DNA of 64,000 bases from positions 11,441 through 75,440 of the forward strand of contig JBMFJH010000005.1 of NCBI GenBank assembly GCA_049973945.1, given 5' to 3'. The position numbers and the translations under genes are program-made. The stretch comes from Thermoprotei archaeon. GTDB lineage: Archaea > Thermoproteota > Thermoprotei_A > Sulfolobales > Sulfolobaceae. Each line of letters starts with the position of its first letter. The first letter of the stretch is position 1. The notes below the pieces were generated by a model. That model made no database searches. It saw nothing but the letters and a program-made list of their open reading frames with translations, and was not told the origin of the DNA. This document shows, in pieces, positions 39,320 through 63,116 of the stretch.

Positions 39320-42300
39320 CTAGAAATGGAGATAGTACAGTTTTGCCAGGGCGAGCTTCACTCTCTCCTCGTCGTTGTTCTCCACCGCCTCGCGTAGGGC
39401 CTTAAAAAGCCCTGAAACTATATCTATGTTAGAATGTATGAGCTCACTTCCCTTCGAGATGGCCCTCACAGTCTCCCTATCGCCGTCGAGCAGGGCGTTT
39501 AATGTGAGTATCAGGTCGCCTACAGACCGATCCGTCGACAGCGCCTGTATGACGGCCCTCGGGCTGAACTCCTTGCTGAGCTCTTCTACGACGCTACCCT
39601 CGGACACGGACTTGAGGTCTTCGACCAGCATCTCGCGCGCAAACCTGTTCCCCTTTAGGGCTAAGCGCAGACCGTTGCAAACGTGTTCGCATAACGTTGC
39701 TTTCTCATCCGGCTCACCCTCATACAGCTCCTCGCACCCCTTCCCACAGTCGACGTCAAGGCCTAGAGAGAGCTTCAGGGCCGGAGCCATGAACCTGAGT
39801 ACCCTGGCGGCACCTAGCACCTCGTCAACGCCGGGCCTCCGGTCGACTACCCCTAAGTAGTTCAGGAGCAGCGTCGTCGCGACCCTCATGGCAAGGGGTA
39901 AATAGTCTAGTAACCAGCCGAGTACTTTGAGAAGTCCCTCCGCCTCGCCCTTGTTGCCAGAAAGTCCCAGGTAAATCAAGTACTCTGCGAGTGTAATACC
40001 CTTTAGCTGCGAACCGCGGGCGTCAATACCTAGCTTCTCCACAGCTTCGTTGAACACCTCCCTGAACTCGCCCGCGGCCTCAATTAGACCCTGGAGGCTG
40101 TCCGCCTTGAGAACCCTCGCTCTCACTAAGAAGGAGTGCGCAGCGACGTAGTTTCCCCAATGCTCTGTCTCCTGGGCGAGAGCTCTGGCCTTCTCGAAGT
40201 GTTTCACCGCGTCGTCGAACTTGCCCTCTCGTAGACTAATAGCACCTGCCGCGGAGTGTAACACCCCCAATATATTCTTCACATGAGAGACTAAGGCCTC
40301 TTTCGGCTGTCTCAGTGATACACCTTTTAAATACTCCCTCACGTTCTCGTCCTTCAACCACTCGTCGAACTTCTCCGCCCTGTCCAAATCGCTTATGAGC
40401 CTCTCTATCTCTCTTGCTAAGTTAATGCCACAATTCAATCCAGTCTTGGTAAGAACCTCAAGAACGCGTGCTTCGGAAGCATACCTAAGAAACTCGCTGC
40501 CCAGCCCTTCGGCCACCTTCAGCAGGAGCTTGGCCGTTTCACATACCACGTTTGGAGGGGCCCCGCCGCCTATCAACGAGGCTAATGCATGAACTAGTCT
40601 AACCTTATTGGAATCCCTCAACTTGTCCAGATCTTCAAGGGAATCCATGACGAATCTTCCGATGCCGAGCAGTGCTTCCTTAATGTCAGCAACTACGTTT
40701 ATAGCAGAGCTGATGAATTCGGCCCAACGGTCGGGCGACTTTCCTCTTAGCGAACTCAAAAGATCTACAGCAGAGACTATAAGATTTGGACGTGTTACAG
40801 TGTCGATGCTCAAGGAAGCTACCCGTAAGGCCTCGTCCGCGAAATCCACTTTGGCGTAGGCGGAGAGGATCGAGAGGCCCAGGCCGTAAATTTCTTCTAG
40901 CAAATGGACTTTTTGCCTTTCCTCCCACTTCTTCAAGAGGGCCTCCAACTCGCCCTTCATCCTGTCGCGCTGAACCATAACGTCGATGAACGGGTTGTCC
41001 ACTAATTTCTCAGCCGAGTACGGCATAAGCAAAAGTCCCTCACTTAAGGGGGTCAGCTCCCCGTCGGCCAACAGCATGTCGAGGGCCCGACACTCGCTTT
41101 CAGGATCGCTCAGGAAGTTAAGGGCCCTTCTGACCGGTTCGGCGAGGTCGCGTTTCCCCTCGTCGCTCATCCTCTTGTAAGCTATAAGGGGTAGCCGGAG
41201 CCCGTGTCCCCCCCTTACAGCACCAAGAGCGAACACTAACGCGTTCCAGCAAGGGCTATTCGGGTCGGCAAGACCTCCTTCGCCGGCTATTACCTCCTTG
41301 ATCTTGCCGCCGTATTCCTTGAATACGTATTTCACGGCTTCTTCCATGCTGTTGACCCTGACCCTCTTCTCTTGATCCATCCAGACGCTCAGGACTTCCC
41401 TTAACTGTTTGTCCTTGATCTCTTCGCCTCTGACGGCCCTCACGATGAGGCTTATCGCGTCCTCCAGAAGGTCCTCGTGCTTCAACGCCAGCCAGTGAGC
41501 TTCCTCCCCCCAATTCTCTTTCTTCCCGCCCAAGTTTAATCCATTCGACCAACGCGCCAGGCGGTTAACGAAGTAGGGGGGCATTACGTACATTCCGCTT
41601 TTCACTGCGTCCTTTAACGGCTCCCTTATGGCCAAGATCTCGGAGAACGCCTCGACCCGTTGTGTATTTATTTCATTATCCTCTTTAATTTTCAGATAGT
41701 CGTTAATCCACCAGACAAGGAAGAGATCCGCCCTACCTCTGGACTCCCTCAGTAACTCTTCAATTCTGCTAACGTTACAGCCTTTCTCCTTTAAATTCTC
41801 GCCAACTAACCTGGCAATTAAAGTATAACCCTCCTTAAACTTCAAGACCTCACTTACTAGGTTACTTAGAGTGTTCTCATCAAACATGCAACCGGAATAA
41901 CTCCTGATTATCTCCTTAAGGAAGTCCATATCGGAAACGTTAAACTCGACACTCTCAACCCTCTTTCTAGCGTCCTCGCGTAACACGTTATAAACATCAT
42001 CCGGTATTACTATGATCGTGGGGACGGAATAAGTCACCCCATCCTTCCCGGAAGTCATGAGATTGAAAATCTTCTCGACCTTACTTACTATAGCCCGAGC
42101 GACCTCCTGCTTCGGCCTTCCCAGACCCCCAACCTCGTAAAATAGTAGAGTTGATGGGTCGTAGAGTAAAACGTATCTCTTGAACCCGATAGCTTCCTCA
42201 ATTGTACTGTGGATCTGACCTTCGTTCAGTGCAGCTAGGTCTATTATGCCCTTTATCTCCCCCTCCTTCAACATCTTTGCCATAAGGTAGTTGATGAAAG

Positions 42301-43687
42301 TGCTCTTGCCCACACCGTGAGGTCCTCTGACTATAAGAATCTTCCCCCCGTCCACGGCCTCCCTAACCTTCTTTACGACGTTAGCGACCTTGTCCTTAAG
42401 GTTCGGAAACCCCTCTGGATCCACGAACTTATAGGAAAGGTTTCCGAACTTAATCCAGGTTTTACCGTCTTTAAATTCTATGTGCAACTGCGATGGCTCA
42501 GTATACAGACTACTTACAATATTCTGAGTTTTCATGACGTTCTCAAGTCGATCTAATCTCTCCTTTAGCCCCTTAATTTCCTTCCTTAGACCTTCGAACG
42601 CCTTCTCCAACTGCTCGACGTCCAGTCCGGTCACCTCGTTTATGGCCTCTAACGCGTCTTCCGGCGTTATCCCCAACTGTAGGGCCACCTTTGACGCTAT
42701 CAACTTCTTAAGCTCGTCGCTTAACTTCCTCCACTTTTCCCCGAAGACGATGAGTTCTTTAACGCTGCCCTCCTCCCTCTCTGTGAGCTTATAAATGAGG
42801 CTTAGGAATATTGCTGTCGCCACGGCTGAAAGCACTATGCCTCCTAGACGTCCGATCGCAACGTCTGCCAACTTCTTTAGACTCTCTTTAGTTAAGTCCT
42901 CGAACAAGCTCTTGACGCTTAGGATCAAGAAGCCCTCGAACTCTACATCCTTCTCGCCCACGAGAAATTTGAGTAGGCTCTCGTAAGCTTCCGCCTGCTC
43001 GATAACGAAGTCCTCCGCGGCTTTACAGCCCTCAACTTTCTCGCAGTTGGCCTCCCTAGCCTCGCTTATGATCTCCTTTACGAAGCCCGGGAGTACGTAT
43101 TTCTTACCCAGCCACTCTGTGGGTTTCTTGAAGTGATCCTTCATTAGCTTAACAGACGCCCTTACGTCGTCGGGTAAACTGTTCTCGTCAATGTCCCAGG
43201 GTATCGCGTAAAATACTACTGCGTCGTAGGATTTGCGTAACTCCTTTAGATGGTTTACTAACTCTTTTGGCAGTTTCTCAACACCGCCCAAGTACTCCCT
43301 AAGAGTCCTCATTTCCTCCTCTGTAAACCCCTCAATTGCGGTATTCCTAACGTCCACGAGCCCTAATCCTATAAGCCTCTTGACTCCTGAAAATATCTTC
43401 ATGATTTGACCAACTTCGTCTTTCTTCTCCCCTGCGATCTCGCGTCTCTCGTTAGGCTTCGCCGGCTTTAAGTTCTCGAACCCAGTTATCGTCTCATAAA
43501 CGTGGGGTAGGTCTTTCAATTTCCCCGTTATTAAGAAGCTCTTCCCGCCCCTTGGGGGGCCAATGACCAGAATTTTAGCGTCTTCACCCTTTTCTACAAT
43601 TGTCTTTTGTAAGATTGGGTAAATGTCACTAGCGTAATAGTTGTTGTTGTACGTGTTGAATAAGTCCTCTCTTTCCTCTGGATTCAA
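39320..43687 (-). CDS. giant STAND/Avs-like NTPase with two P-loops, one TM-like helix, a coiled coil and a C-terminal helical-repeat region
   Basis: Uninterrupted 1455-codon ORF. Walker A GPPRGGKS (aa 43-50); hydrophobic helix aa ~279-301; heptad-like region aa ~357-386. Second Walker A GPHGVGKS (aa 455-462) followed by YVLLYDPS and TIIVIPDD strands and an EGYTLIARLVG (GxP-like) motif. TPR-like helices run to the C-terminus. Visibly AT-richer than the flanking cas genes. Confidence 0.85.
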   Translation of the reverse strand: MNPEEREDLFNTYNNNYYASDIYPILQKTIVEKGEDAKILVIGPPRGGKSFLITGKLKDLPHVYETITGFENLKPAKPNERREIAGEKKDEVGQIMKIFSGVKRLIGLGLVDVRNTAIEGFTEEEMRTLREYLGGVEKLPKELVNHLKELRKSYDAVVFYAIPWDIDENSLPDDVRASVKLMKDHFKKPTEWLGKKYVLPGFVKEIISEAREANCEKVEGCKAAEDFVIEQAEAYESLLKFLVGEKDVEFEGFLILSVKSLFEDLTKESLKKLADVAIGRLGGIVLSAVATAIFLSLIYKLTEREEGSVKELIVFGEKWRKLSDELKKLIASKVALQLGITPEDALEAINEVTGLDVEQLEKAFEGLRKEIKGLKERLDRLENVMKTQNIVSSLYTEPSQLHIEFKDGKTWIKFGNLSYKFVDPEGFPNLKDKVANVVKKVREAVDGGKILIVRGPHGVGKSTFINYLMAKMLKEGEIKGIIDLAALNEGQIHSTIEEAIGFKRYVLLYDPSTLLFYEVGGLGRPKQEVARAIVSKVEKIFNLMTSGKDGVTYSVPTIIVIPDDVYNVLREDARKRVESVEFNVSDMDFLKEIIRSYSGCMFDENTLSNLVSEVLKFKEGYTLIARLVGENLKEKGCNVSRIEELLRESRGRADLFLVWWINDYLKIKEDNEINTQRVEAFSEILAIREPLKDAVKSGMYVMPPYFVNRLARWSNGLNLGGKKENWGEEAHWLALKHEDLLEDAISLIVRAVRGEEIKDKQLREVLSVWMDQEKRVRVNSMEEAVKYVFKEYGGKIKEVIAGEGGLADPNSPCWNALVFALGAVRGGHGLRLPLIAYKRMSDEGKRDLAEPVRRALNFLSDPESECRALDMLLADGELTPLSEGLLLMPYSAEKLVDNPFIDVMVQRDRMKGELEALLKKWEERQKVHLLEEIYGLGLSILSAYAKVDFADEALRVASLSIDTVTRPNLIVSAVDLLSSLRGKSPDRWAEFISSAINVVADIKEALLGIGRFVMDSLEDLDKLRDSNKVRLVHALASLIGGGAPPNVVCETAKLLLKVAEGLGSEFLRYASEARVLEVLTKTGLNCGINLAREIERLISDLDRAEKFDEWLKDENVREYLKGVSLRQPKEALVSHVKNILGVLHSAAGAISLREGKFDDAVKHFEKARALAQETEHWGNYVAAHSFLVRARVLKADSLQGLIEAAGEFREVFNEAVEKLGIDARGSQLKGITLAEYLIYLGLSGNKGEAEGLLKVLGWLLDYLPLAMRVATTLLLNYLGVVDRRPGVDEVLGAARVLRFMAPALKLSLGLDVDCGKGCEELYEGEPDEKATLCEHVCNGLRLALKGNRFAREMLVEDLKSVSEGSVVEELSKEFSPRAVIQALSTDRSVGDLILTLNALLDGDRETVRAISKGSELIHSNIDIVSGLFKALREAVENNDEERVKLALAKLYYLHF

Positions 43688-44322: not shown

Positions 44323-45231
44323 CTAAAGCTCCGCCCTGAAGCCCCTGTATGCCCTCCCGTCTTTGACGGCCGAGGCCAGCTTGACCGCGTGGGCCCTCAT
44401 GGCCTGGTCTAGGGTCTTGGGGTTGTGGTCGCCCAACTCCCTGTACCTCTCGTCGAAGACCCTCAGCACGACCTTGGCCAGCTCCCTCCTGCTCTCTGGG
44501 GAAATCAGCCCGTCCTTCACCTGGAGCCTGAGGCCCGACAAAAACGCCCTGACCAGGGCGAAGTCTACCAACGGCTTGAACATCTCCGAGAAGTCGAAGA
44601 CCAGCGCCGGGCTCCCCGGCCTGTCCCTGTGGACGAAGCCCAGGTAGGGGTCTAGGCCCGCTAAGAAGAGGTACTTGTAGGCCTTGGAGTAGAGTATGGC
44701 GTAGCTGTAGTTCAGGGCCAGGTTGAACTGGTCTTTAGCCTCGGGGTCCCTCCCGTCGAAGTTCAAGTCCCTGGGTAGGACTTGGGCTAACTCCCCCCAA
44801 TAGAGCCTGGCAGCTGTAGGCTCGTCCTTATCCAGGATGCTCTTATAGTCCACCCTGAACCCCTTCCTCGCCTAGTGCTTGACGTGGGCCGCTTGGTTGT
44901 AGATCTTGGCCGAGACCATCTCTCCCCCGTACCTCTCAGCGGAGCTCAGGTAGGCCTCGTACTGCTTGACCCTAGTCTTCACGGTCTCTGTGCCTAGGGA
45001 GGGCGTCAAGACGCCCCAGGGGCTCCCGTTCCTGTCGAGGAAGAACAGCGTTATCCCGTGCTTGAGGGCGAGCCTAATAGCCTGGACTGTAATGGCCCCC
45101 GAGGAGGATATCAGTATCTCGTCGACCTCAGCGGGCGGAACCTCGACCTTCCTGTCCTTGAACTGTACCACGAAGACCCCGTTCTTGACCTTGAGCAGGG
45201 AGCCGTGGTCCGAAACGACTAGGGTCTTCAA
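44323..45231 (-). pseudogene. cas1: cas1 interrupted by an in-frame TAG
   Basis: N-part (TTG 45231, LKTLVVSDHGSLLKVKNGVF.., 119 codons) and C-part (NLALNYSYAILY, GFVHRDRPGSPALVFDFSEMFKP) share one frame, separated only by TAG at 44872-44874 (..AAHVKH*ARKGFRVDYKS..). TTGA overlap with the upstream gene. Confidence 0.85.
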
Positions 45232-46076
45232 GCCTTCGCTCCCCCGTTGCAGTAGGAGTAGAAGGGGCAGGATGAGGGGCAGACCGCGGGCCTCCCCGGG
45301 TCCTTCTCCTCCGAGATCAGCTCGACGACCTCGTCCCTGGCGTCGATGAACTGCCTCCTCAGGTCGGGGGAGATGTAGTAGACCTCGTAGGAGATTTTGG
45401 GAACCCCCTCGCTCAGGCCGTTGACGTAGACCAGGGCCCCGAAGTCCACGGGGAGCTCGAGGTTGCTTTCGAGGGCCATGGCGTAGCCAGCTAAAGCCAA
45501 CCTGTGGAAGTCCTGCGGCGAGCCCAGCTTGAACTCGACGACCATGGAGAGGGAAGTTATCGCGTCGACCGAGAGCCTCGGGGAGAGGCCCAAGGGGGTA
45601 CCGTCGACCCTGACCTCCGAGAAGGTTGGCAGCAACGGGGAGTCCGAGCCGTCCGAGAGGAGGTCGAGAGCGAAGGCCTCGTAGAGCGATGAACAATAGG
45701 CGGAGTACTTGGGGGGACAGAGGGAGGACGCCCTCCTGGAGTTGTAGACCGCTAGCTCCATGGCCTTGTAGGGCGGCAAGCCGGAGGAGAGCCACCTCGA
45801 GACGTCCCTAGAGGCCCTGGCGAGCACCTCGTGCACGGCCTTGCCTAAGGTTAACGGCTCCCTGGCCTCGCCCTGCAAGTTCAGGACCTTCCGCAGGTAG
45901 ACGTCCCTCTTGGTGGGGCAGTAGCGGTAGGCCACGTCAGCCATCGAGAGCCCCAGGTAGCGCCTGGGCTTTACAGGTGGACGGGTGTAGGACCAGCCCC
46001 TGAGCTCCTCCTCCACGGGGTCGGAGGCCCTGTAGGAGTGGAGCCTCCTGAGCTGCCTCAGGACCTGGAGCTTCAT
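45228..46076 (-). CDS. Cas4-superfamily nuclease, Csa1-like (I-A adaptation module)
   Basis: N-terminal YCPTKRDVYL Cys plus C-terminal CPSSCPFYSYC cluster; RecB-like D..(10)..E-x-K in VDAITSLSMVVEFK; 282 aa (Csa1 size rather than Cas4). Confidence 0.75.
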   Translation of the reverse strand: MKLQVLRQLRRLHSYRASDPVEEELRGWSYTRPPVKPRRYLGLSMADVAYRYCPTKRDVYLRKVLNLQGEAREPLTLGKAVHEVLARASRDVSRWLSSGLPPYKAMELAVYNSRRASSLCPPKYSAYCSSLYEAFALDLLSDGSDSPLLPTFSEVRVDGTPLGLSPRLSVDAITSLSMVVEFKLGSPQDFHRLALAGYAMALESNLELPVDFGALVYVNGLSEGVPKISYEVYYISPDLRRQFIDARDEVVELISEEKDPGRPAVCPSSCPFYSYCNGGAKA

Positions 46077-46616: not shown

Positions 46617-49083
46617 GTTAATCCTCTATGGAATTGAAAGACGTGCTGACGGATATGCCCGTGTACTTCCCTGCAGATGGGTTAATCCTCTATGGAATTG
46701 AAAGATTATCATGATAGCAGCGCCTGGAGGGCTCATCGCTTTCGTTAATCCTCTATGGAATTGAAAGAATCGCGAAGCGAGAGAGGACTGAGGAGCTGAA
46801 ATTGTAGAGTTAATCCTCTATGGAATTGAAAGCGCTGAATAGAAAGATCAGGTACTTAGAGAAGCTGTCGATGTTAATCCTCTATGGAATTGAAAGTGAT
46901 AGGCGGCTAGATGGAGGGGAGTTTCGCCATTATTGGTTAATCCTCTATGGAATTGAAAGCGTGACAACCTCCAAGCCCTTCAAGACGGAGCTTGTTGCTG
47001 TTAATCCTCTATGGAATTGAAAGCGCGGTACGCGCTCGTGGTTAAACGTCAAGACGAGGAGATGTTAATCCTCTATGGAATTGAAAGGTAATGCAGTCGC
47101 TGTTGCTGTGCCAGCCCGTTATCGTGTTAATCCTCTATGGAATTGAAAGCAGCAACACCTCGACCTGTTGAATCCTCTTGGTATAGTAGTTAATCCTCTA
47201 TGGAATTGAAAGCCATCTGTGATCGGGTTCATGATTCCGTCGTCCATGTTCACAAGGTTAATCCTCTATGGAATTGAAAGCTCACCTTTCAGTATAAATA
47301 GATAGCTATAATCGAAATCTGTTAATCCTCTGTGGAATTGAAAGGGAGAAGCTCGCCACAGTCCTTTCGCTCCTGCCTTACTCGTTAATCCTCTGTGGAA
47401 TTGAAAGACTTCAATATCGAGTCAGCCAGCTCTCCGAGGTAGTCGTGTTAATCCTCTGTGGAATTGAAAGGCGTAAGTTCAGGCGGTGGGCTCTCTTGAC
47501 CGACTCTTTCTTTGTGTTAATCCTCTGTGGAATTGAAAGCTTTCCTGTCGTTTTCCTCACACCACGCGACGTACGCCTGTTAATCCTCTGTGGAATTGAA
47601 AGACAACGACACTTGGTTTAATGTCCTGTGGGTTCAGGATCCGTTAATCCTCTATGGAATTGAAAGTACTGATCATGATCTTCTTTCCGTTTAACGTGAG
47701 AACGTCGTTAATCCTCTGTGGAATTGAAAGTTAATTCTTATTTTTAAACTGTCTACAAGTTCATTTAAACTGTTAATCCTCTGTGGAATTGAAAGCGAGC
47801 TACACGAACACTACGCTGCAGCCGTTCCCCTTGGTTAATCCTCTGTGGAATTGAAAGTCGACGGCGTTGTGATGAGGCGAGGTAGATGCGTTCGTCAGTT
47901 AATCCTCTGTGGAATTGAAAGAAATACGTACTGTACTACTACCTAGCGTTTAACGGCTCGTCGTTAATCCTCTGTGGAATTGAAAGGTCATTTCCATAGC
48001 CCCTCTCTTCCTCAGCTCTCTTACTATGTTAATCCTCTGTGGAATTGAAAGTCTCTGTGCCCCATGCCCGCAACAGCACTTTCCCGCAATGGGGTTAATC
48101 CTCTGTGGAATTGAAAGGTATTCCAGTTGCGCATAAAGCGGTGACCCGCTCTTGACCGTTAATCCTCTGTGGAATTGAAAGAAGATCTCTCGCTCTCTGT
48201 CAGCAGTATTGAGGAGGAAGAGTTAATCCTCTGTGGAATTGAAAGAGATCCTGCTCCCAGGTCACATCGAACGGGTCAATCCTGTTCTTTAACAGTTAAT
48301 CCTCTGTGGAATTGAAAGCATGTATACGTTGTATAGGTGGTTCACGTGATGGCACGTTAATCCTCTGTGGAATTGAAAGATCGGTAGGGTGACGTTGGTA
48401 GTACTGGTTCCAGAGGTTAATCCTCTGTGGAATTGAAAGACTCCTTTCTATCTATAAGAACGCCATCAAGGATCGTGTTAAGTTAATCCTCTGTGGAATT
48501 GAAAATATTTCAATAGCAATAACGGCTTATCATACTCCATCCCCGCGTGTTAATCCTCTGTGGAATTGAAAGAGCTCTTTGGCTACTTCAACTATTTCGA
48601 AAATACCTCCCGTTAATCCTCTGTGGAATTGAAAGATTAGGTTCGCCAATGCTGTCGGCTGGAGAACCGATTGACGTCAATCCTCTATGGAATTGAAAGC
48701 GTTCGAACACGGGGTTGAACTTGTGGGGCGGGACTTCGTCGTTAATCCTCTGTGGAATTGAAAGCAATCTCGTTCTCGACGTGCTCTGCAGGTCTCAGGG
48801 ATGTTAATCCTCTGTGGAATTGAAAGTTTTCAAAGTCCATCTCCTTAATGACCAGCCATGCTTTTCCGTTAATCCTCTGTGGAATTGAAAGCTGGTTCGG
48901 TGGAAACGGCGAGAAGTCGAAAACAATGAGTTAATCCTCTATGGAATTGAAAGGCGTACTCAGTATATTTCGTTATAGGTATTTGTAGACTTGGTTAATC
49001 CTCTATGGAATTGAAAGTAGTCCCTGAGGCCCTGCACGACCTTGTATGCGTGGAAGTCGGTTAATCCTCTATGGAATTGAAAG
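46617..49083 (+). CRISPR. CRISPR array 3: 39 repeats, 38 spacers; two repeat alleles (..CTCTATGG.. and ..CTCTGTGG..)
   Basis: Counted repeat by repeat. Repeats 1-11, 17, 33 and 37-39 carry A at repeat position 12; the other 23 carry G. Leader is upstream on the plus strand. Confidence 0.97.
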
Positions 49084-49308: not shown

Positions 49309-49710
49309 TTACACTAAGGGCAACTCGAAGGGCTCCAGTATCCTGATCCCTAGTCTCAGGATCTCCTCCGCGCTCACCTCCCCATTCAGCTTCGCGCTAA
49401 CCAAACGCCGTCCCTTGAGCTCGAACTTCGACGACCTCCTTATCAGCTCGTTGAGCCTCTTGACGTTGTATACCACCCCCTTGAACTCCCTCACCCTCTC
49501 CTTCACCACGAAGTCTTCCGGGTCGTCCGGGATAGGGATGGGCTTCCCGTAAACGTTGAGTATCACGAAGCCCCTGTCCCCCCTCAGCAGGTTCAGCAAT
49601 GAGTCGAAGAGCTCCCTCTCGCTCCCGCAGTAGTACCACTTCATGACCTTGCCCTCGTAGACCCTCTCGCAGGGGCTGCCGTCGCCCTTCGAGTTAGTTA
49701 TGTACATCAT
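49309..49710 (-). CDS. small conserved protein encoded directly downstream of cas10, unknown function
   Basis: 133 aa, 12-nt gap after cas10, same strand; a truncated second copy lies at 17524-17739. Confidence 0.6.
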   Translation of the reverse strand: MMYITNSKGDGSPCERVYEGKVMKWYYCGSERELFDSLLNLLRGDRGFVILNVYGKPIPIPDDPEDFVVKERVREFKGVVYNVKRLNELIRRSSKFELKGRRLVSAKLNGEVSAEEILRLGIRILEPFELPLV

Positions 49711-49722
49711 GTTGCCTCGCGT

Positions 49723-52044
49723 CTACTCCCTCTTCAGTAGCGAGTACATGTTAACAGCAGTCCTGAACTTGAGCAGGAACGAAAGGACTTTTTCCGCGTC
49801 GTCGCCGGGATAGGTCAGGAACTTCTTGTAGATCCCCTTCATCTCCTCGGCGTACTTCTCGTTCCTGGCGTTCAGGTAGGCGTAGCTGACCAGCGCCCTG
49901 TGATCCTCGCCCGCCTCGACCATCGACCCTATCTGGTAGAGCTTGTAGAGGTAAGCGCTCGGCACCTTGTCCCCGATGTTCTTAGCGACAGTTAGGAACT
50001 CCTCGGCCTCCTCCCAGCTGAGCGAGGTCAGCTCCTTACTCCCCTCCCTGTACTTCTCGAAGATGTTGCTCGCCACCCTGCCCCCGCTCCCCGTCCTCTC
50101 AGCCTTCGCTAAGGCCTCGTACTCCCTAGCGAAGGAGTAGGCGTAGGCTATGGGGTACTTCTTCTTGAAGACGAACACTCCCCCGGAGACCGAGATCGAC
50201 GGTATTACCCTTCTGACCAGCTTCGAGAGGCGGACGAGGAGCTCGAAGGCCTCGTCCCACTTCCCGTAGACCGCCAGGTCGTCTCCCCCGGAGTAGAGTA
50301 TCACGACCGGGGCCCCCTGGCCAGTCCTATCGGTGACCTCCCTCACCACTACGTGCGCGAAGGCGAAGTCCAACAGGGTCGAGAACGTCATGAACCTGCC
50401 GGGGAAGGCGGAGAGCCTCTTGGCGATCTCGCCTATCCTGTCCCCGTCCGTCACCCCCAGGGCGAGGTAATTGCCGAGCTCGTCGAGGCTCTTGAACCTA
50501 CCCCCCTCGTCCACGGGGTGGTAGGTGCTCAGGGTGATGTAGCCGAAGCTGACCCCCTCCTCTGCCAGCTCCTCGAGGACGAAGTTCGTGGTGTCGTTGA
50601 CCGCGAACACCCTTATCCTCTTTGCGACGTCTTTCTTGGTCTGGATCAGGCTCTTCAAGAACGCGACGTCTTTCCTGTTGCCTGTCGTGCCCTTCCTGGA
50701 CTCGTCCCCTCTCACGTTGTGGACTAACAGGAAGCCCACGTTCAGAGGCTCTATGTAGATCTCGCCGACGTTGTCCCTGTAGGCGTTCTCCCCCCTCGCC
50801 CCGTCCTTGTACACCACCTCTATCACGTAGTCCAGGTTCCTCGTCGAGTGGCCGACGATCAGGGAGATCAGGTTCATCTCCGAGATGTACTGCGGCCTTC
50901 CTGTTTCGGCGCGGGGCGTAACCTCGCCGGCGGTCAGCGTCTCTATCCCCTCTACCTTATCGACCTCGTAGTACCTGGGGCTCAGGTCGCCGAAGTAGTC
51001 GACCTTGACGTCCTTAGTCACGGAGGGTCTGCCGACTGTCCGGAGGTTCTTGAAGGCTTCGTCCAGAGCCCTCTGGAAGTCCCTGTCCTCCTCGTTCTCG
51101 CTGTATATCTTCATCTTCGCCACTTCTATTTCCCCGCTGAGCGAGTAGGCGAACTGGAGCTCGTAAGCGCTCCACTCCTCGAGGTCGGTCAGCACTTTCT
51201 CTACGTCTTTCACCTTCTTCTCGTCCAGGCCACAGGCCACGAATATCAGCTTGCCCGGTTCGAAGGATATGTTGTGCAACGAGGTCAGTCCCAGGACTTC
51301 GGCGAGCTTGTCCGTCAGGGCCCTCTGGAGCAGCTGGAGGAAGAAGCTCCTCCCCCTCAGCCTCTTGGAGGTCTCCGCCTCCCCCTTCACGTTGGTCAGG
51401 AACCTCTGGATCCCCTTGACGTCGATCAAGAGGAGCCTCACCTTCTGGCAGACGGAGAGTGGGGCGGCCAGCCTGCTGTGGCCGTAGAGCGTCGTATTGG
51501 GCACAGCTTGGTAAACAGCTGCCGGCACCAGCAACGCGACCGTCCTGTATATGTAGTCGTAGGTCTCGAGGAGGCTCAGTGGGTCCTTTATCTTCTTGGC
51601 CTTTTCGGCCAGGCTCTTGAGTACCTCCTCGATCTTCTTGTAGCTCACGAAGGCCTCGCTCATTTTCCTAGTCCCGTAGCTTTCAGGGCGCGCGTTGAAG
51701 TCTATGTAAGTCACGGGGTACCAGACCTCCTTGTCCCGCAGTTTGTCCAGGTCGTTTGGGCTCACGTCTAGGACGGGGTCTAGCAGGGGGGTCGTGAAGG
51801 GCTGTTGGGGGCCGGCCTCGGTTCCTATCCTCTCGGAGGCCGACGCGTAGTCCGCTACCCTCCACTTCCCCTCCTTGAATATCTTGACGTACTCCTCGCC
51901 CAGGTAGTCCTGAAGGAAGTCACACGTCAGTCTGTCGTGTTCGTGGAAGTCGCCTTCAAGGACGCACCTCGGCCTCTCCCCGGCCCTTTGCAGTATTTTC
52001 CCCACGTCGTGGAGCAGGGTGACCAGTATCAGCTTCGCGTCCAT
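49723..52044 (-). CDS. cas10: Cas10 (type III large subunit) with HD and GGDD motifs
   Basis: N-terminal HD (LLHDVGK, H12-D13, later HEHD); Palm-1-like LLLIDVKGIQRFL; cyclase motif ILYSGGDDLAVYG; 773 aa. Confidence 0.9.
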   Translation of the reverse strand: MDAKLILVTLLHDVGKILQRAGERPRCVLEGDFHEHDRLTCDFLQDYLGEEYVKIFKEGKWRVADYASASERIGTEAGPQQPFTTPLLDPVLDVSPNDLDKLRDKEVWYPVTYIDFNARPESYGTRKMSEAFVSYKKIEEVLKSLAEKAKKIKDPLSLLETYDYIYRTVALLVPAAVYQAVPNTTLYGHSRLAAPLSVCQKVRLLLIDVKGIQRFLTNVKGEAETSKRLRGRSFFLQLLQRALTDKLAEVLGLTSLHNISFEPGKLIFVACGLDEKKVKDVEKVLTDLEEWSAYELQFAYSLSGEIEVAKMKIYSENEEDRDFQRALDEAFKNLRTVGRPSVTKDVKVDYFGDLSPRYYEVDKVEGIETLTAGEVTPRAETGRPQYISEMNLISLIVGHSTRNLDYVIEVVYKDGARGENAYRDNVGEIYIEPLNVGFLLVHNVRGDESRKGTTGNRKDVAFLKSLIQTKKDVAKRIRVFAVNDTTNFVLEELAEEGVSFGYITLSTYHPVDEGGRFKSLDELGNYLALGVTDGDRIGEIAKRLSAFPGRFMTFSTLLDFAFAHVVVREVTDRTGQGAPVVILYSGGDDLAVYGKWDEAFELLVRLSKLVRRVIPSISVSGGVFVFKKKYPIAYAYSFAREYEALAKAERTGSGGRVASNIFEKYREGSKELTSLSWEEAEEFLTVAKNIGDKVPSAYLYKLYQIGSMVEAGEDHRALVSYAYLNARNEKYAEEMKGIYKKFLTYPGDDAEKVLSFLLKFRTAVNMYSLLKRE

Positions 52045-52049
52045 CTAGG

Positions 52050-53060
52050 TCACCCGACGCACAGCCTCGCCCAACCGACCCCTACGGAGTCGATCAGCTT
52101 GACCGTGCTGTCGTCCCAGAAGTGTTCCGTCACCTTTGTCATGACCTTGCTCCTAAGGCTCTCCAAGTCGGGTGGCAGCGGGATCGTCTTCGCCTTGTGG
52201 CCGGTGAACATGCCTACTTTCACAGGGAAGCAGTTGCCCTCGACCTTCAGGGTGTCGAGGAACTTCCTGTACTCCTGGAACTTTGACGCGGCCTTCAACT
52301 TCTCCTTCTCCGAGGAGACCACGCGCTCGCTGTAGGCCTTGAGGGCGCTCACTATCGCGTCCTTGTTCACCAAGTCGTCCAGCGCCTTGAGCTGGGCGTT
52401 CACGCCGTAGTTCTGAGGCTGTACTACCTTCACGTCGTAGGTCAGCGTCCCTCTGTCGAGGGTTATCGCGTAGGCCTGGGTGGAGAAGCTCCCCACGAGT
52501 TCTGAGACCTTGATTAGGCGGAGGGAGAGGGAGAAGCCCTTGACCTCCGGGTCGCTGATCAAAAGCCTGCTGAAAGCGTCGTAGTTGTACGTGCCCCTCC
52601 CGAACTGCAGCCTCCTCTTTAGGAGGAGCTCCACCGGGCCTCCCACTTCCTTCACTCTCTTAGGTATCTGGTGTTTCGGCAACCTCATGAGCTCCTCCAA
52701 GTTCGAGCGCACCTCCTCGTACACGTCCTTGTTGACCATCCTGCTGAGCACGGCTGTCCTGATAAGCCCCTTGACGGTCGACGCGGGTATCAGGTTCTCG
52801 TTAATCATGAGTATCCTGTCGGGCGCGGGGGAGGTGGAGGGGGTGGAGAAAACCAGTTTGAAGCCCCTGACCTCCCTCGCGAACTCCTCCCTGAATACGT
52901 CGCTCAGGGCCTTGACCTTCCCCATGGCCTTGAAGGGGTCGGCGACTATTAGCCTCTCGCCTACCAGCTCGAAGTCGGCCCCTCTGTACAGCGTCTCCCC
53001 GCTCCACACGAAGACGGGGGTGATCGGTGAGACTTCTATGGTGAAGGACTCCTTGATCAT
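52050..53060 (-). CDS. csm5: RAMP protein, Csm5-like (Cas7 group)
   Basis: SPITPVFVWSGETLYRGADFELVGERLIVADPFK, IPASTVKGLIRTAVL (G-rich-loop equivalent), LLISDPEV, KVGMFTGHKAKT, C-terminal VGVGWARL. Confidence 0.65.
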   Translation of the reverse strand: MIKESFTIEVSPITPVFVWSGETLYRGADFELVGERLIVADPFKAMGKVKALSDVFREEFAREVRGFKLVFSTPSTSPAPDRILMINENLIPASTVKGLIRTAVLSRMVNKDVYEEVRSNLEELMRLPKHQIPKRVKEVGGPVELLLKRRLQFGRGTYNYDAFSRLLISDPEVKGFSLSLRLIKVSELVGSFSTQAYAITLDRGTLTYDVKVVQPQNYGVNAQLKALDDLVNKDAIVSALKAYSERVVSSEKEKLKAASKFQEYRKFLDTLKVEGNCFPVKVGMFTGHKAKTIPLPPDLESLRSKVMTKVTEHFWDDSTVKLIDSVGVGWARLCVG

Positions 53061-53078: not shown

Positions 53079-54017
53079 TCAGGACTGCTGCGTGATTAGC
53101 TTGATGAGGTTGTCGATCTCTTTGGCCAGCTCTTCGACGGAGTTCAGCGGCTTTTCCTTGAACTTCGTCTCCTTGTTAGCCTGAGGGTCGTAGACTGAGA
53201 CGTCTATACTGGTGAACTCCACCCTCCCGTATCCCCTCGAGCCGTAGGCCCCCAAGTAGGTCTTCTCCAACAGCGTCATACCCTTCGTCAGGAGGTTCAG
53301 GAACTCCTTAACCGAGTTCGCGTTCTTATCGAAGACTAAGAGCGAGATCGTGCCGGTGAACGGCACCCCGGGCTTAACCCTGCTGACTTCCCTTGGATCG
53401 GCGGCCGACGTGACCCTGTCTATCCTGTTCTCGCCCTTGTCCTCTATGAAGTCGTCGAAGGTGACAAGGCCGTTCCTCTTGTAGATGTCGCAGACGTACC
53501 CCTTAGAGGGGAACAAGTCCTCCACCAACAGGGCCGTCGGCGTCAACACCTTCAGCAGCTCAGCCAACTCCTGCTTGTTCTTTAGCCCGTCCTGCAGTTC
53601 CCTTATGGGGAAGGCGCCGTAGCCGAAGAGCCTGTCCAACGGGGTGTCCTTCAGCGCCTTGACGAACTCCTCGTCGGTTATCCTCGTCCCCGCCAAGTCC
53701 TTGAATATCCCCCTAGCCATTATGTGGGCCCATATCTTCCTGTCGGACGAGTAGAGCGGTAACCCGAGGGCGACCTCCAGCAACGACCTCATTCTCCCCT
53801 TCAGCGACGAACCGGGGATATAGGGCACCCTGACCGTGATCTTCTTGTTTTGATCGCCCTCGCAGGCGTACTCCCTCTCAACGCTCATCGGCTCTATGTC
53901 GGAGCCCCCGATGCGGCCCAAAGCCCTGCCGCCCGAGATCAGCAGGCCAGTCTTAGTCGTAAGTTCGACGTTGAGCCTCACGATCTTGAGTAGCTTTAGC
54001 GAGAGCTGGCTGGACAC
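53079..54017 (-). CDS. csm3: RAMP backbone subunit, Csm3/Cmr4-like (Cas7)
   Basis: GLLISGGRALGRIGGSDIEP and VPYIPGSSLKGRMRSLLE motifs; 312 aa. Confidence 0.8.
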   Translation of the reverse strand: MSSQLSLKLLKIVRLNVELTTKTGLLISGGRALGRIGGSDIEPMSVEREYACEGDQNKKITVRVPYIPGSSLKGRMRSLLEVALGLPLYSSDRKIWAHIMARGIFKDLAGTRITDEEFVKALKDTPLDRLFGYGAFPIRELQDGLKNKQELAELLKVLTPTALLVEDLFPSKGYVCDIYKRNGLVTFDDFIEDKGENRIDRVTSAADPREVSRVKPGVPFTGTISLLVFDKNANSVKEFLNLLTKGMTLLEKTYLGAYGSRGYGRVEFTSIDVSVYDPQANKETKFKEKPLNSVEELAKEIDNLIKLITQQS

Positions 54018-54018
54018 C

Positions 54019-54429
54019 TCATCCCACCTCCTTCGCCACCACGGCGAGGCTGTCTATCAGAAGCCTGGCTTTCCTTATTAGGATCTTGACCTCCTTCTGA
54101 GGGGCGTTCAGAAGGTCGTTTATCATGTCGATGAGGATCTTCTTGAGGTCGTCGTAAATCTGACCCCTCACGTTTTGGTACTCTATTATCAGGTAAGCCC
54201 TCGGGAGTTGCTCCTTCAGGAACTTCACCGCCTCCTCATCTTTCATGCCCTCGGCAGTGTCCAGGATCGTCGCCAGCATCTCATGGATCTTCCTGTAAGA
54301 GGACTCCGACCTTATTTGCCTCAAGAAGTAATCGTGGTTTCTTTCTAACACCGTCCTCACTATGTCCATGGGCTCTTGGCTCTTTATCGATATACTAACT
54401 TGAGGCCTCGGGTTTGGCCTCTGAGACAT
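54019..54429 (-). CDS. probable small subunit (Cas11; Csm2/Cmr5-like)
   Basis: 136-aa all-helical-looking protein, first gene of the operon, 1-nt gap to the Cas7 gene; assignment by size and position only. Confidence 0.5.
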   Translation of the reverse strand: MSQRPNPRPQVSISIKSQEPMDIVRTVLERNHDYFLRQIRSESSYRKIHEMLATILDTAEGMKDEEAVKFLKEQLPRAYLIIEYQNVRGQIYDDLKKILIDMINDLLNAPQKEVKILIRKARLLIDSLAVVAKEVG

Positions 54430-54530
54430 GGCTGAGTCTTGAAAAGGGAAAATGATATTATAAATTTTGTAAGGTTAACGACGTATGTGACGCCCCACTT
54501 TATGCTAACGTTCATTCGCGTCGTGTTACT

Positions 54531-55022
54531 CTAGTTAACAGTACATATGACGAAGTTACAGTTCGGGCAATTCAGGTTATCGCATTTAAGATTGTCCGTC
54601 ACTCCATCGTGTATGGAGCGTTCTCCGTGTTCGCCACACTTAATTGTGGTGTTTGCCTTCATAGATGCGATTATGTCGCCGCTAGAGGCGTCGCACATGC
54701 AACAATAAGCTTTGTGAATGTCACAGATAACGAATCTATTGCAGTTTTTAGAGCCGTCATTACATTCTATTATCGATGAATTAGTTCTGAACAAATTAGT
54801 CCTGAAAGTGAGATAACCGACGATCTCGTTGATTAATCGTGTAATGTTTTCCCCTAACTTCACACTTTTATCCCACGCTACTATCAAAATTACTTTTTCA
54901 TCTTTCCTCAAGCGCTTACTAAACAATTCCTTTTTCAGTGTTCCTAAAAGCCCTTCATTTTTACAGTACTCTACACAATAGAATATTCCTACTAGGTCTA
55001 TGTACACTTTCCTTACGCTCAT
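54531..55022 (-). CDS. Cys-rich protein (putative multi-zinc-finger C-terminus), partner of the ATPase
   Basis: ATG 55022 overlaps the ATPase stop as ATGA. About 16 Cys in the last 90 aa (CNDGSKNCNRFVICDIHKAYCCMCD .. CGEHG .. CDNLNCPNCNFVIC). AT-rich codon usage. Confidence 0.6.
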   Translation of the reverse strand: MSVRKVYIDLVGIFYCVEYCKNEGLLGTLKKELFSKRLRKDEKVILIVAWDKSVKLGENITRLINEIVGYLTFRTNLFRTNSSIIECNDGSKNCNRFVICDIHKAYCCMCDASSGDIIASMKANTTIKCGEHGERSIHDGVTDNLKCDNLNCPNCNFVICTVN

Positions 55023-55972
55023 AGCAACACGCCCGACAGACTGAAGCCCGGTATGTACCAACCCTCTTTCAGCGTAGACAGAGTAACTTTGTTACGCTCT
55101 CTGGTCATCACGTATGCAGTCACCAGGTTGCTAGAGCGCATGACGCCTTTGTAGAAGTCCCAGCTGTGGGTGGTCGCAATGATGTACAAGTTCTCCGAGC
55201 TGGATGCTAGGCGTTGTGCCACTCTGCCCAGCGTGTAGGCGAAGCTCGGGTAAGCGAAGGCCTCGGGCTCGTCGAGTAATAGCAAGACCTTCTCCTTCTT
55301 GCTCAACGCGTACGAATATATCATGGCGGTCAGGGCGAGAGCCGAGTAGAACGAGGGCGGGAGCTTCGTAACGCTTCGACCTTCGTTTCCGAAGACGTCT
55401 CTCCACTCTATCCCTTCAGGTGTGACGGAAATCCTCAGAGGCATTAAATACTTCACCTCCTCCTCGTGACCCGCCTCCTTCGCCTCTTTAGACACCTCCG
55501 CGACCTCGCCCTCCACCAACCTCATAGCCTCATACAAGTCCTCGTCCCTGGATCGTGAGCGGACATAAAACAGCCTCAGTATCCCCGATACGTCTTTCCC
55601 GATCTTTGAAAGTCTCGTCAATTCTAAGTTCTTCTCCCCTACCTCCTCCGCCTCCCTGAAGTAATCCTTGTACTTGTCGTAGATGTAGTAGGTTATGGCG
55701 TACGGGTCTAAATACACCGCGTCGTCGAAGTTCTCGTTAACGCTACACTCCTTTATCGGCTCTGTCTCCACGCTCAAGTCGTACTTGTTCCCGGTGATAG
55801 AGTGAAAGATACACCTCAAGAGCACGGACTTCCCGGCCACGTTAGGGCCTACTATCAGAGTTATTCTATTCGCCTCCAATGTGGCCTTGAGCTCGACCGG
55901 CTCGCTTATGTTAGCCGTTATCTTCACGAGTTCAGTCCTTTGTATTGAAATATATAGCTTCGTATCACACAC
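55019..55972 (-). CDS. ABC/SMC-like (AAA_15/AAA_21-type) ATPase
   Basis: Walker A IVGPNVAGKS, signature-like LPPSFYSALAL, Walker B VLLLLDEPEA, H-loop ATTHS; 317 aa; AT-rich codon usage. Confidence 0.8.
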   Translation of the reverse strand: MCDTKLYISIQRTELVKITANISEPVELKATLEANRITLIVGPNVAGKSVLLRCIFHSITGNKYDLSVETEPIKECSVNENFDDAVYLDPYAITYYIYDKYKDYFREAEEVGEKNLELTRLSKIGKDVSGILRLFYVRSRSRDEDLYEAMRLVEGEVAEVSKEAKEAGHEEEVKYLMPLRISVTPEGIEWRDVFGNEGRSVTKLPPSFYSALALTAMIYSYALSKKEKVLLLLDEPEAFAYPSFAYTLGRVAQRLASSSENLYIIATTHSWDFYKGVMRSSNLVTAYVMTRERNKVTLSTLKEGWYIPGFSLSGVLL

Positions 55973-56083
55973 GGGTAGCCGTTCCGAAGTTAACGGACTT
56001 GGGCTCGACTGCAGTCAGTATTACCTTCAGCGACTCTTGCAACGCGAGGAAAAAGATAAGAACCGAGGGCGGAATCAGACTTA

Positions 56084-56929
56084 ATGAAGTTAATAACGGT
56101 CAGGTTCGTCTCGCCCTTCAAGATTGGCGAGAGGGAGGACTACGTCGATGCCGTAACGCTGTACAGGGCCTTCATTAAGGCCTTGGCCATGCTGGGAGAG
56201 AGCTTCAGTGAGATAATGGAGGGAAAGGTCAAGTTCTCCTCCATGTTCCCCGTCATAAACGGCACTCTCTACGTCAAGACCCCCTATAGGAAGGTCGAGT
56301 GCAAGGACAGGGAAAAGGATAAGAGGCTGAGGAGGATCGGCTTCATCAGGGTTGATGTCCTCAAGAAGGCGGAGCCCCCGTACACCTTCAGGTGTAGGGA
56401 GAACAGCGACGAGATATACGTCCAGGACTACAATAACCAAGAGTTCGCGCTGAAGGGGTCGGACTACCTTGAGTCCCACGGGAGGACGATCGTCGAGTAC
56501 AAGAACAGGATCGACAGGGTCAACCACTCGGCGGACATCTACTCCACTCCATCGTTCATGCCGGCATACGACATGGGCTTCTTGGCCACCGAGTGGAACG
56601 GCAAGCTCGAGAGGGCCTTGAGGCTGTTGGAGAAGTTGGGGATAGGGAAGGACAGGAACCTGGGCTACGGGAAGTTCGTGGTCAAGGGGGTCACGGACTT
56701 CGATATAAGCCTAAGCTGGAGGTACAAGTACGTCACGGGGAAGGCTTACACCGAGGGCGACTTCCTCGCGGAGAGGTTCGACAGGGCCCAGATAATAGGC
56801 GGGGACGTGAGTCCCGTCTTCTTCCCGATATTCGTCCTGTTGCCCCCCGGCTCGCTGGTCAAGGAGACGAAGAGGTTGGTGGAGAGGCGGGACGACAACG
56901 TGGTGATCGTCGACCCCATAGCTCTGTGA
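56084..56929 (+). CDS. csm4: RAMP protein, Csm4/Csx10-like (Cas5 group, Cas10 partner)
   Basis: MKLITVRFVSPFKIGEREDYVDAVTLYRAFIKALAML (Csm4-type N-terminus) and C-terminal LGIGKDRNLGYGKFVV glycine-rich loop. Confidence 0.7.
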   Translation: MKLITVRFVSPFKIGEREDYVDAVTLYRAFIKALAMLGESFSEIMEGKVKFSSMFPVINGTLYVKTPYRKVECKDREKDKRLRRIGFIRVDVLKKAEPPYTFRCRENSDEIYVQDYNNQEFALKGSDYLESHGRTIVEYKNRIDRVNHSADIYSTPSFMPAYDMGFLATEWNGKLERALRLLEKLGIGKDRNLGYGKFVVKGVTDFDISLSWRYKYVTGKAYTEGDFLAERFDRAQIIGGDVSPVFFPIFVLLPPGSLVKETKRLVERRDDNVVIVDPIAL

Positions 56930-57060: not shown

Positions 57061-58236
57061 TCAACCTTCCTCGCCCTGCCCCGCCCTGAACAGCTCCTGG
57101 GCTATTTCCACAAGCTCCTTTGGGCCGAGGCTCAAGTCCCCGTACTCCGGGGGCCTCTCCCTCAGGCTCACGAGCCCCACCTTCTCCGCCACCCTGCCCA
57201 TCCTCTTCACCGCCTCCCTAGCCTCCGACTCGCTGAACTCCCCGACCTTCACCTCGAAGGCCCATACCGGCTTCCTCCCCTTGACTATCACCACGTCTAT
57301 GTCCTCCCTGGGCGAGTAGTGCAGTACCCCGCCGAAGTGCCTGGCCAGCATCTCCCCCACGCTGAACTGTACTTCCCTGCCTATGGGTAGCTCCCTGACC
57401 TCGACCTCCCTCTCGCCCACCGCGTACTTCGCTTCTGCGTAGAGGGTCAGGGAGAGGGCCGGCGACCTGACGCTGTAGTAGTTCTCCCTGGAGAGTGTGG
57501 GGATTTTCTGGGCCAGCCCCATCCTCACGAGTTTGTTGACTACCGAGGAGACCGTGGCCTCCCCGCCCTTTGGCTGTATCACCCCGGCTATCTCGGAGGT
57601 CTTCCAGACCCCCTCCCCCAGCAGGAGCAGCGTCCTGTAGTAGACGTCGGTGAGCTGCCTCTCCTCCTCCTTGAACACCTCCCCGATCAGCCCCTTCGAT
57701 ATCAGGGCGAACTCCTTCACCCTCCCGACGAACTCCTCGTAGCCGTCGACCAGGGGGATCACCCAGGGGTCCCTGTACAACGCGGAGAGGACTGGGTTCT
57801 CGACCTGGGCCAGGACGTCCTCGTAGGAGATGATGTCCACCTCGAGCGGGGTGAAGAGGCCGAGGAGGGGGCTGTTCCTGTCGAAGACCTTGCTGACTAT
57901 CCCGTAGCTCGACCCGACCAACACGAGCACCCCGTCCCTGTCCCAGGTGCTTATTACGGACCAGTAGACCTCGGGGAGCCTCTGGAACTCGTCTATCACT
58001 GCGACTCCTCCCCTGCGGAGCGCGGCCTTGGCCTCGCGAAGGGCCTCCTCCACCTTCATGACCTCGTCGTCGAGGGTCACGGCGTTGCCCGGGTCGGCTA
58101 TGAGCGCGTAGAAGTCGAACTTGAGGTTCCTCCTTACGAGGGTGCTCTTCCCGGTCTTCCTCCTGCCGTAAATCAAAGTCCAGTTCTTTATCGCCCTTAT
58201 CCTCGCCTCTTCCCGTCTCTTGAGATATAGTCTCAC
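57061..58236 (-). CDS. archaeal ATPase (Arch_ATPase + DUF234-type C-terminus)
   Basis: Walker A IYGRRKTGKSTLV, Walker B VAVIDEFQRL, SPLLGLF motif, C-terminal wHTH plus restriction-endonuclease-like tail (DIDVVIV..WAFEVK). Confidence 0.8.
   Translation of the reverse strand: MRLYLKRREEARIRAIKNWTLIYGRRKTGKSTLVRRNLKFDFYALIADPGNAVTLDDEVMKVEEALREAKAALRRGGVAVIDEFQRLPEVYWSVISTWDRDGVLVLVGSSYGIVSKVFDRNSPLLGLFTPLEVDIISYEDVLAQVENPVLSALYRDPWVIPLVDGYEEFVGRVKEFALISKGLIGEVFKEEERQLTDVYYRTLLLLGEGVWKTSEIAGVIQPKGGEATVSSVVNKLVRMGLAQKIPTLSRENYYSVRSPALSLTLYAEAKYAVGEREVEVRELPIGREVQFSVGEMLARHFGGVLHYSPREDIDVVIVKGRKPVWAFEVKVGEFSESEAREAVKRMGRVAEKVGLVSLRERPPEYGDLSLGPKELVEIAQELFRAGQGEEG

Positions 58237-61778: not shown

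Positions 61779-63116
<1,338 letters not shown>

Follow-up and report, generated by a model that had tools for sequence, protein, structure and literature searches.

The window analysed here, a 64,000-nucleotide stretch of contig JBMFJH010000005.1 from a Thermoprotei archaeon of the Sulfolobaceae, carries a type III-A CRISPR-Cas locus with an additional pair of genes, encoding an ABC-type ATPase and a small cysteine-rich protein, in its midst. This pair almost certainly belongs to Cas_RecF + RFas, the accessory pair of crenarchaeal type III-A systems that was named in 2014 by Vestergaard, Garrett & Shah (PMC3973734) and catalogued again in 2018, so the family itself is not new. As to what it does, the analogy to known defence systems would allow a Septu/PARIS-like ATPase–effector complex serving the type III-A system, a tentative proposal which we put clearly below an even chance; identity and mechanism taken as one whole statement fall only somewhat short of it.

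In the 2018 catalogue of Shah et al., cluster 17 is Cas_RecF, an SMC ATPase of ~330 amino acids (aa), and cluster 83 is cas_RFas, a protein of ~160 aa that lacks database matches, 'invariably' adjoins cluster 17 as well as type III-A cassettes, and scores highest for Cas association (PMC6546367). The cas_RFas hidden Markov model (HMM), which is carried by PADLOC/CCTyper (PDLC01064, 'cas_RFas; cluster 17 associated'), matches the small protein of the window with E=2.3e-15 (residues 5-161 against profile positions 2-132/133) as well as 9 of 10 RFas family members, the best of them at 8.8e-44. It is by the adjacency rule of cluster 83 (PMC6546367) that we assign the window ATPase to Cas_RecF; the name of the cluster-17 model is absent among the best 25 of 79 PADLOC matches listed for this protein. 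The two pairs differ in nothing essential, i.e. the same ATPase (~300-330 aa) stands directly upstream of a ~160-aa protein in the same setting, a crenarchaeal type III-A cassette with the CARF protein Csx1. An earlier, sequence-only reading of this DNA had considered, as one of two alternatives, that the genes are an uncharacterised type III accessory pair: accessory to type III they appear to be, being linked to csm genes or CRISPR in seven lineages, but unrecognised they were not, having been named in 2014. The literature that uses the names Cas_RecF or RFas gives no function for the pair, nor is the pair mentioned in a survey of type III effectors from 2024.

The open reading frames (ORFs) listed for the window place the pair at 55019-55972 and 54531-55061 on the minus strand, between divergent csm4 and csm2-csm3-csm5-cas10, just as the earlier reading had located it, with the CARF Csx1 gene also flanking the locus:

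55019..55927, minus strand: Cas_RecF-type ABC/SMC-head-like ATPase, 302 aa (ORF, Pfam, NCBI protein identity, AlphaFold/Foldseek, motifs)
54531..55022, minus strand: RFas (RecF-associated protein), 163 aa, 13 Cys (PADLOC cas_RFas, alignment, AlphaFold)
55019..55022, minus strand: ATGA stop/start overlap, translational coupling (sequence; small-gene ATG 55022-55020, ATPase TGA 55021-55019)
56084..56929, plus strand: csm4 (cas5 family), divergent from the pair (TIGR01903 6.7e-17; PADLOC Csm4 2e-21)
54019-54429, minus strand: csm2 (NCBIfam, PADLOC)
53079-54017, minus strand: csm3 (NCBIfam, PADLOC)
52050-53060, minus strand: csm5 (NCBIfam, PADLOC)
49723-52044, minus strand: cas10 (NCBIfam, PADLOC)
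49309-49710, minus strand: orf133, a conserved 133-aa ORF directly after cas10 (product 95% identical in the related locus L086)
46617..49083, plus strand: CRISPR array beside the type III-A module, 39 repeats of GTTAATCCTCT[A/G]TGGAATTGAAAG

The coupling of the two genes by ATGA, also predicted before, is evident in the sequence, and in relatives the junction consists of 4- and 8-nt overlaps or a 1-nt gap (L086, L101, L002).

The ATPase and RFas proteins

For the ATPase two starts come into question, an upstream in-frame GTG at 55972, which gives the 317-aa protein of the earlier reading, and an internal GTG at 55927, which gives 302 aa. The internal GTG is probably the true start and the 317-aa version too long, because a 302-aa NCBI protein from a Thermoprotei metagenome-assembled genome (P0001) is 100% identical to the window ATPase, homologue starts coincide with this position in all 21 aligned ATPase homologues and there is a TATA-like heptamer 29 nt ahead of it; the ORF is real, but probably shorter than proposed. 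Walker A (GPNVAGKS), Walker B (LLLLDEPEA) and H-loop (ATTHS) are intact, as the earlier reading had them. Its assignment to the AAA_15/21-like class of Gabija, Septu and PARIS finds agreement in Pfam (AAA_15 1.5e-10, above cut-off; AAA_21 1.3e-7), in the best PADLOC matches (AriA 6.9e-11, partial; mad8; PDC-M01A; Old 7e-8; PtuA 6e-6; GajA 7e-5) and in Foldseek matches to AriA and PtuA. By sequence, the ATPase also matches 6p74 in the PDB. The confident AlphaFold model (predicted local distance difference test, pLDDT, 92; predicted template modelling score, pTM, 0.92) consists of an ABC head with four short helices inserted between the lobes (residues 75-151, ~80 residues). Its top Foldseek matches are Rad50/SMC heads (E 3e-7 to 2e-5, template modelling score about 0.45-0.5), followed by the retron-IA ATPase (9n69), RecN, AriA (8v45, 2e-5) and PtuA (8ee4).

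Among known defence systems, Septu (the ABC ATPase PtuA with the HNH nuclease PtuB) and the PtuAB of retron type I-A likewise combine an AAA_15/21 ATPase with a small partner encoded after it, and it is their ATPases that appear among the Foldseek matches and, for PtuA, in PADLOC. In contrast to Septu, however, RFas shows no HNH signature (there is no HNH family match in Pfam or PADLOC), the window ATPase is shorter (302 aa versus about 460) and Cas_RecF + RFas is tied to crenarchaeal type III-A CRISPR loci. PARIS, which belongs to OLD class 4, combines the ABC ATPase AriA with AriB, a DUF4435 TOPRIM nuclease (PMC12796447). Here, too, ATPase and partner are split over adjacent genes, and AriA is the best PADLOC match as well as a Foldseek match of our ATPase; yet RFas is without TOPRIM/DUF4435, and the AriA HMM match is confined to the segments around Walker A and Walker B/H-loop. 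With OLD and the Gabija protein GajA, in which an ABC ATPase is fused to TOPRIM, the window ATPase has the ATPase class in common but not the fused domain: it ends 35 residues past the H-loop, and Pfam detects no Toprim domain in the polypeptide.

That Rad50/SMC heads and RecN are the best structural matches could, along with the historical name Cas_RecF, speak for a RecF/Rad50-type role in DNA repair, i.e. mending host DNA damaged by the HD nuclease of Cas10 or processing DNA ends. We consider this very improbable. RecF, RecN and Rad50 models are absent from the 25 best NCBIfam matches listed for the ATPase, most of them short P-loop matches to ABC transporters far under cut-off, and SMC_N of Pfam remains at 16 bits versus a cut-off of 40 bits; the membership in a housekeeping family that the earlier reading had named as a challenge to its own proposal was thus not found at the HMM level. 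Rad50, SMC and RecN proteins have a long coiled coil with a hinge or zinc hook, whereas the model of our ATPase contains neither a long antiparallel coiled coil nor a zinc hook, but the ~80-residue insertion and a degenerate signature motif, and there is neither an Mre11-like nor a kleisin partner. Moreover, the narrow CRISPR-linked distribution is not that of a housekeeping protein. The ATPase is therefore Rad50/SMC- and PtuA/AriA-like, yet by sequence not a member of the RecF, RecN or Rad50 families. Specific to its own family are, in the homologue alignment, an HEEE motif and a conserved C-terminal WYIPGF tail; this tail has low pLDDT in the AlphaFold model and is therefore consistent with a docking motif. 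As the Walker-B glutamate is missing in 3 of 21 ATPase homologues, nucleotide sensing fits better than a motor function.

RFas, which shares 27-55% identity with the other members found, is a protein of two halves: an N-terminal alpha/beta half with the conserved D9 and W50-D51-K52, and a C-terminal half rich in Cys and His, with conserved Cys positions. The earlier reading had counted about 16 Cys in the last 90 residues; there are 11 there and 13 overall, which at ~8% is still Cys-rich when compared with 0-0.7% in neighbouring Cas proteins. Twelve Cys/His positions are conserved in the alignment (C16, C20, C87, C94, C100, H103, C107, C108, C110, C129, C147, C155), which suggests roughly three tetrahedral metal sites; Y106, G115-D116 and D139-G140 are conserved as well. 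Despite the shallow alignment, the AlphaFold model is confident (pLDDT 84, pTM 0.83) and compact, with beta1-alpha-alpha-beta2-alpha and then a Cys region rich in beta structure that contains one helix, so the strand-helix rhythm that had been recognized in the N-terminal part of the sequence reappears as strand-helix-helix-strand-helix in the N-terminal half. The guess of a degenerate TOPRIM attached to this rhythm finds no support, however: the conserved residues are D9 and WDK rather than the E...DxD of TOPRIM, and TOPRIM proteins do not occur among the 50 best-listed matches of either RFas Foldseek search. Readings of RFas as TOPRIM/DUF4435, HNH, PD-(D/E)xK, HAD or PIN were all rejected, none having support from Pfam, the PDB or Foldseek. 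PIN-like proteins (ExoIX, T5 exonuclease, viral FEN, an NYN protein) do stand in the Foldseek list at E=0.2-1.2, but are mixed with many glycosyltransferase halves, so that the resemblance is only a generic Rossmann-like one. The small ORF itself is to be regarded as a genuine gene, because it matches the cas_RFas HMM, has homologues with conserved Cys and shows far fewer nonsynonymous than synonymous differences per site against its closest relative (pN 0.26, pS 0.81).

Distribution, transcription and exchange of the cassette

ATPase homologues were collected by a word-indexed protein search (22 proteins). A single-sequence search of the same kind with RFas against a 15-billion-protein collection gave nothing, an alignment being needed as query, and HMMER, run exhaustively over 1.84 billion representatives with the RFas profile, yielded 12 proteins, one of which (P0035, an 882-aa tandem-repeat protein) was judged spurious. 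Seven lineages share the order ATPase-RFas with overlapping or abutting frames, at identities that fall to 39% for the ATPase and 27% for RFas, and csm genes and/or a CRISPR array adjoin the pair in all seven, which answers positively the question, raised by the sequence-only reading, of whether the genes are conserved as a pair:

Window lineage: csm4, divergent from ATPase-RFas-csm2-csm3-csm5-cas10
L086: gene order as in the window
L002-4 / L092-94 (low-GC host): gene order as in the window
L095-98: gene order as in the window, pair decayed
L101/102 (39% ATPase identity): ATPase-RFas-csm2-csm3
L100: CRISPR array, then ATPase-RFas-csm5
L099: ATPase-RFas on a contig fragment

In four metagenome contigs (L095-L098, e.g. 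L097 3818-5224), the ATPase gene has a shared frameshift just after Walker A and RFas a shared in-frame TAA after C20, within a run of A; the frames of csm2 to cas10 are open. Both genes have thus been lost together, and the Csm module is able to survive without them. A plasmid or virus origin of the pair was looked for and not found, with no ATPase found in PLSDB (plasmids) or INPHARED (phages) and no RFas in IMG/VR, and the RFas profile detected nothing beside 80 bacterial AAA_15 ATPases retrieved by a generic Walker-B pattern. Two distant Cas_RecF-like ATPases (L089 4048-5052, L090 8001-8825; 33-40% identity) have neither RFas nor cas genes nearby; their ORFan-rich contigs carry a DUF1374 protein or a HerA/TrwB-like ATPase and are therefore probably mobile elements.

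Within the locus, the pair seems to form a unit of its own, as judged from putative promoters and from comparison with L086, a closely related and otherwise near-identical locus:

55950..55956, minus strand: TATA-like heptamer TATATAT, putative promoter of the ATPase-RFas unit (near-leaderless), 29 nt upstream of GTG 55927
54458..54464, minus strand: TATA box TTTATAA, putative separate promoter of csm2-csm3-csm5-cas10, 35 nt upstream of the csm2 ATG
~54393..56045: tract divergent from L086, comprising promoter, ATPase, RFas and the csm2 5' end (blastn breakpoints, per-gene identity)

These two heptamers are the only TATA-like ones on the minus strand between 54000 and 56200, the window average being 0.2 per kb per strand. 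Two promoters are therefore probable, one for the pair and one for csm2-cas10; because the second TATA box precedes csm2, the cassette is not strictly inside one operon, and of the earlier picture of a cassette wedged into the type III operon the position holds, but probably not the single operon. The AT-richer codon usage of the pair, also noted earlier, is clear from the GC content at third codon positions (GC3), which is 0.46 in RFas and 0.73 in the ATPase versus 0.85-0.89 in csm3, csm5, cas10 and csm4. A GC3 dip centred on RFas occurs in both high-GC loci, i.e. the window and L086, and may have its source in low-GC donors or in selection for rare codons. Identity and synonymous divergence (dS) between the window and L086 vary strongly along the locus:

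csm3: 95.8% aa identity, dS 0.16
csm5: 95.5% aa identity, dS 0.12
orf133: 94.7% aa identity, dS 0.18
csm2: 90.5% aa identity (first 40 aa: 52), dS 0.42
csm4: 87.5% aa identity, dS 0.26
cas10: 77.1% aa identity, dS 0.74
ATPase: 70.4% aa identity, dS 1.87, ratio of nonsynonymous to synonymous divergence (dN/dS) 0.10
RFas: 54.5% aa identity, dS saturated

With 54.5% identity, the RFas alleles of the window and L086 are nearly as distant from each other as from that of the low-GC locus L003 (46%). Accelerated evolution was rejected as the cause, since dS itself is high or saturated while dN/dS is low; judged from these sequences, the divergent tract is the product of cassette-wise allele replacement by recombination, with both genes under purifying selection. 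Cas10 is itself a mosaic in this comparison (window 49723-52044, minus strand, versus L086 5188-7473), in which segments of ~55% identity (aa 61-120 and 301-360) stand beside others of 87-93%.

A cassette with its own TATA box, a discrete recombination tract and a donor-like low GC3, placed differently relative to the csm genes in L100, might also be thought of as an autonomous two-gene ATPase–effector module for abortive infection, which would travel as defence-island cargo in CRISPR-cas loci without a tie to Csm. The ATPase class, which is that of Septu, PARIS and Gabija, and the intact csm genes where the pair decays would be in line with this. We nevertheless think it unlikely, if deserving of attention, because all informative RFas loci are of type III-A or adjoin CRISPR, the Cas-association score given by Shah et al. 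(PMC6546367) is the highest, viral contigs, plasmids and phages yielded none and the family is tiny (12 in 1.84 billion), whereas a free-standing system would be expected to be spread more widely. The earlier suggestion of an independent module parasitising the locus is borne out in so far as the cassette behaves as a separate unit of transcription and recombination; the parasitising part finds no support in the genomic context.

The opposite possibility is an intimate helper of the Csm complex, i.e. an ATP-dependent factor for its assembly, remodelling or recycling, with RFas as a zinc adaptor on Csm4 or Cas10, or, in a form speculated on by Shah et al. (PMC6546367), an energy source for target processing. 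In four lineages csm4 and csm2 flank the pair throughout, and Cas10, with a dS of 0.74 compared with 0.12-0.18 in backbone subunits between the window and L086, diverges in a way that would fit co-variation of partners. Most type III-A systems, however, work without such a factor, and broken copies of the pair are accompanied by intact csm genes, which makes a helper role distinctly improbable.

Finally, the cassette could be a decaying relic in this genome, with the small ORF as poorly expressed low-GC3 junk: a GC3 of 0.46 in a background of 0.87 implies many rare codons, the absence of RFas from the 15-billion-protein collection means that it was probably never called in its source genome, and broken copies do exist in the sister lineage (L095-98). 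In the window, however, both ORFs are intact, the conserved Cys, His, D9 and WDK are all kept, pN is far under pS, and coupling overlap and TATA box are preserved, so a relic is highly improbable here.

A possible mechanism

How, then, might the pair function as a Septu/PARIS-like complex in the service of type III-A interference? Translational coupling would set a fixed proportion of ATPase to RFas, and both proteins would join in one complex. In it, the ATPase would act as an ABC/SMC-head nucleotide binder in which the short four-helix insertion replaces the long coiled coil and which, by analogy with PtuA (Septu), AriA (PARIS) and GajA, may dimerize or oligomerize as an ATP-gated sensor or scaffold. 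RFas would be the compact partner, stabilized by several metal (probably zinc) sites, that is held, released or positioned by the ATPase; an acidic/basic patch of D9, D51 and K52 at the C-terminal ends of the two parallel strands is its candidate catalytic or nucleic acid-binding site. The complex would act alongside the Csm effector in interference. Since neither CARF nor SAVED nor a known nuclease domain was found in the pair, the lack of the former two would point to an action independent of cyclic oligoadenylate. The cassette, with its own promoter, would be swapped as one unit from locus to locus. What we infer here is complex formation, metal binding, the division of labour between sensor and effector and any nuclease activity.

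Several observations weigh against this proposal. On the side of the ATPase, the ABC signature is degenerate (PSFY instead of LSGGQ), which makes canonical head-to-head dimerization uncertain. Furthermore, Sulfolobaceae homologues with 50-53% identity occur without RFas (L001, L087/88), and more distant ones (33-40%) are found on ORFan-rich contigs without cas genes, so the ATPase can work, or at least survive, alone. On the side of RFas, neither Foldseek against the PDB and BFVD (no match at E<0.09) nor a search of PDB sequences gave a match, and Pfam assigned no family to any of 10 RFas members, with only scattered single matches at E<=10. Lastly, no trigger that would tie the pair to Csm activity is identifiable.

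A bolder version of the proposed ATPase–effector complex would make RFas the founder of a new metal-rich effector fold, gated via ATP by Cas_RecF, and the pair a cyclic oligoadenylate-independent arm of type III-A immunity. One variant of it is a PARIS-like guard that would fire when viruses inhibit the Csm complex; in that case, an arms race with viral inhibitors would have left its traces in the exchange of the cassette and in the divergence of Cas10 parallel to it. We regard this bolder version as distinctly unlikely.

The surrounding locus and the meaning of the pair

Other parts of the window also contain features of the CRISPR-Cas region. The product of orf133, located at 7492-7893 in L086, in the same position after cas10, has no match in Pfam, NCBIfam, PADLOC or PHROGs and is perhaps another, so far uncatalogued, accessory gene of the III-A variant found here. 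Three CRISPR arrays comprise 122 repeats in total (28003-29875, 34380-37876 and 46617-49083), the first with a GATAATCC... repeat variant and the last with blocks split by A or G at repeat position 12. Beside csa1 (45228-46076, Csa1 match 2.8e-88), the Cas1 profile is split over two minus-strand ORFs at 44323-45795, with positions 1-116 in the ORF 44872-45795 and 155-249 in the ORF 44323-44853, which suggests that cas1 is frameshifted or interrupted. Between two of the arrays lies a minus-strand ORF of 1455 aa (39320-43687) with weak P-loop/STAND/NACHT-like matches (E about 3e-4). Between csm4 and csx1, on the minus strand, 57061-58236 encodes an AAA_14 / PADLOC PDC-S01-like ATPase (7e-12), to which AAA_14/DUF4143 or ATPase_2 genes near the pair in L002, L005 and L087 are related. 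Farther along, a 424-aa protein (61779-63053, minus strand) combines Cas_APE2256 CARF (6.8e-32) and an SSO1393-like winged helix (1.9e-24) with ~130 C-terminal residues that contain a VDTGF motif and weakly match Asp_protease_2 (0.007) and gag-asp_proteas (0.08); RVP matches at 0.048 over nearly the full profile. From its sequence, this protein may be a CARF–retropepsin fusion, i.e. a signal-regulated protease.

Cas_RecF + RFas is among the most tightly CRISPR-linked type III accessory modules catalogued, and there has been no follow-up since 2018. To this, our analysis adds that RFas has a confidently modelled structure without a recognizable fold and probably several metal sites, that the ATPase is Rad50/PtuA-like rather than RecF-like and that the cassette appears to be swapped as a whole within a locus that is otherwise conserved. 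These structural and recombination results sharpen the puzzle of Cas_RecF + RFas, but do not solve it. If the pair does contribute to interference, it would do so by a route other than cyclic oligoadenylate signalling, and the logic of an ABC ATPase combined with a small effector, as in Septu, PARIS and Gabija, would thereby extend to archaeal CRISPR systems.

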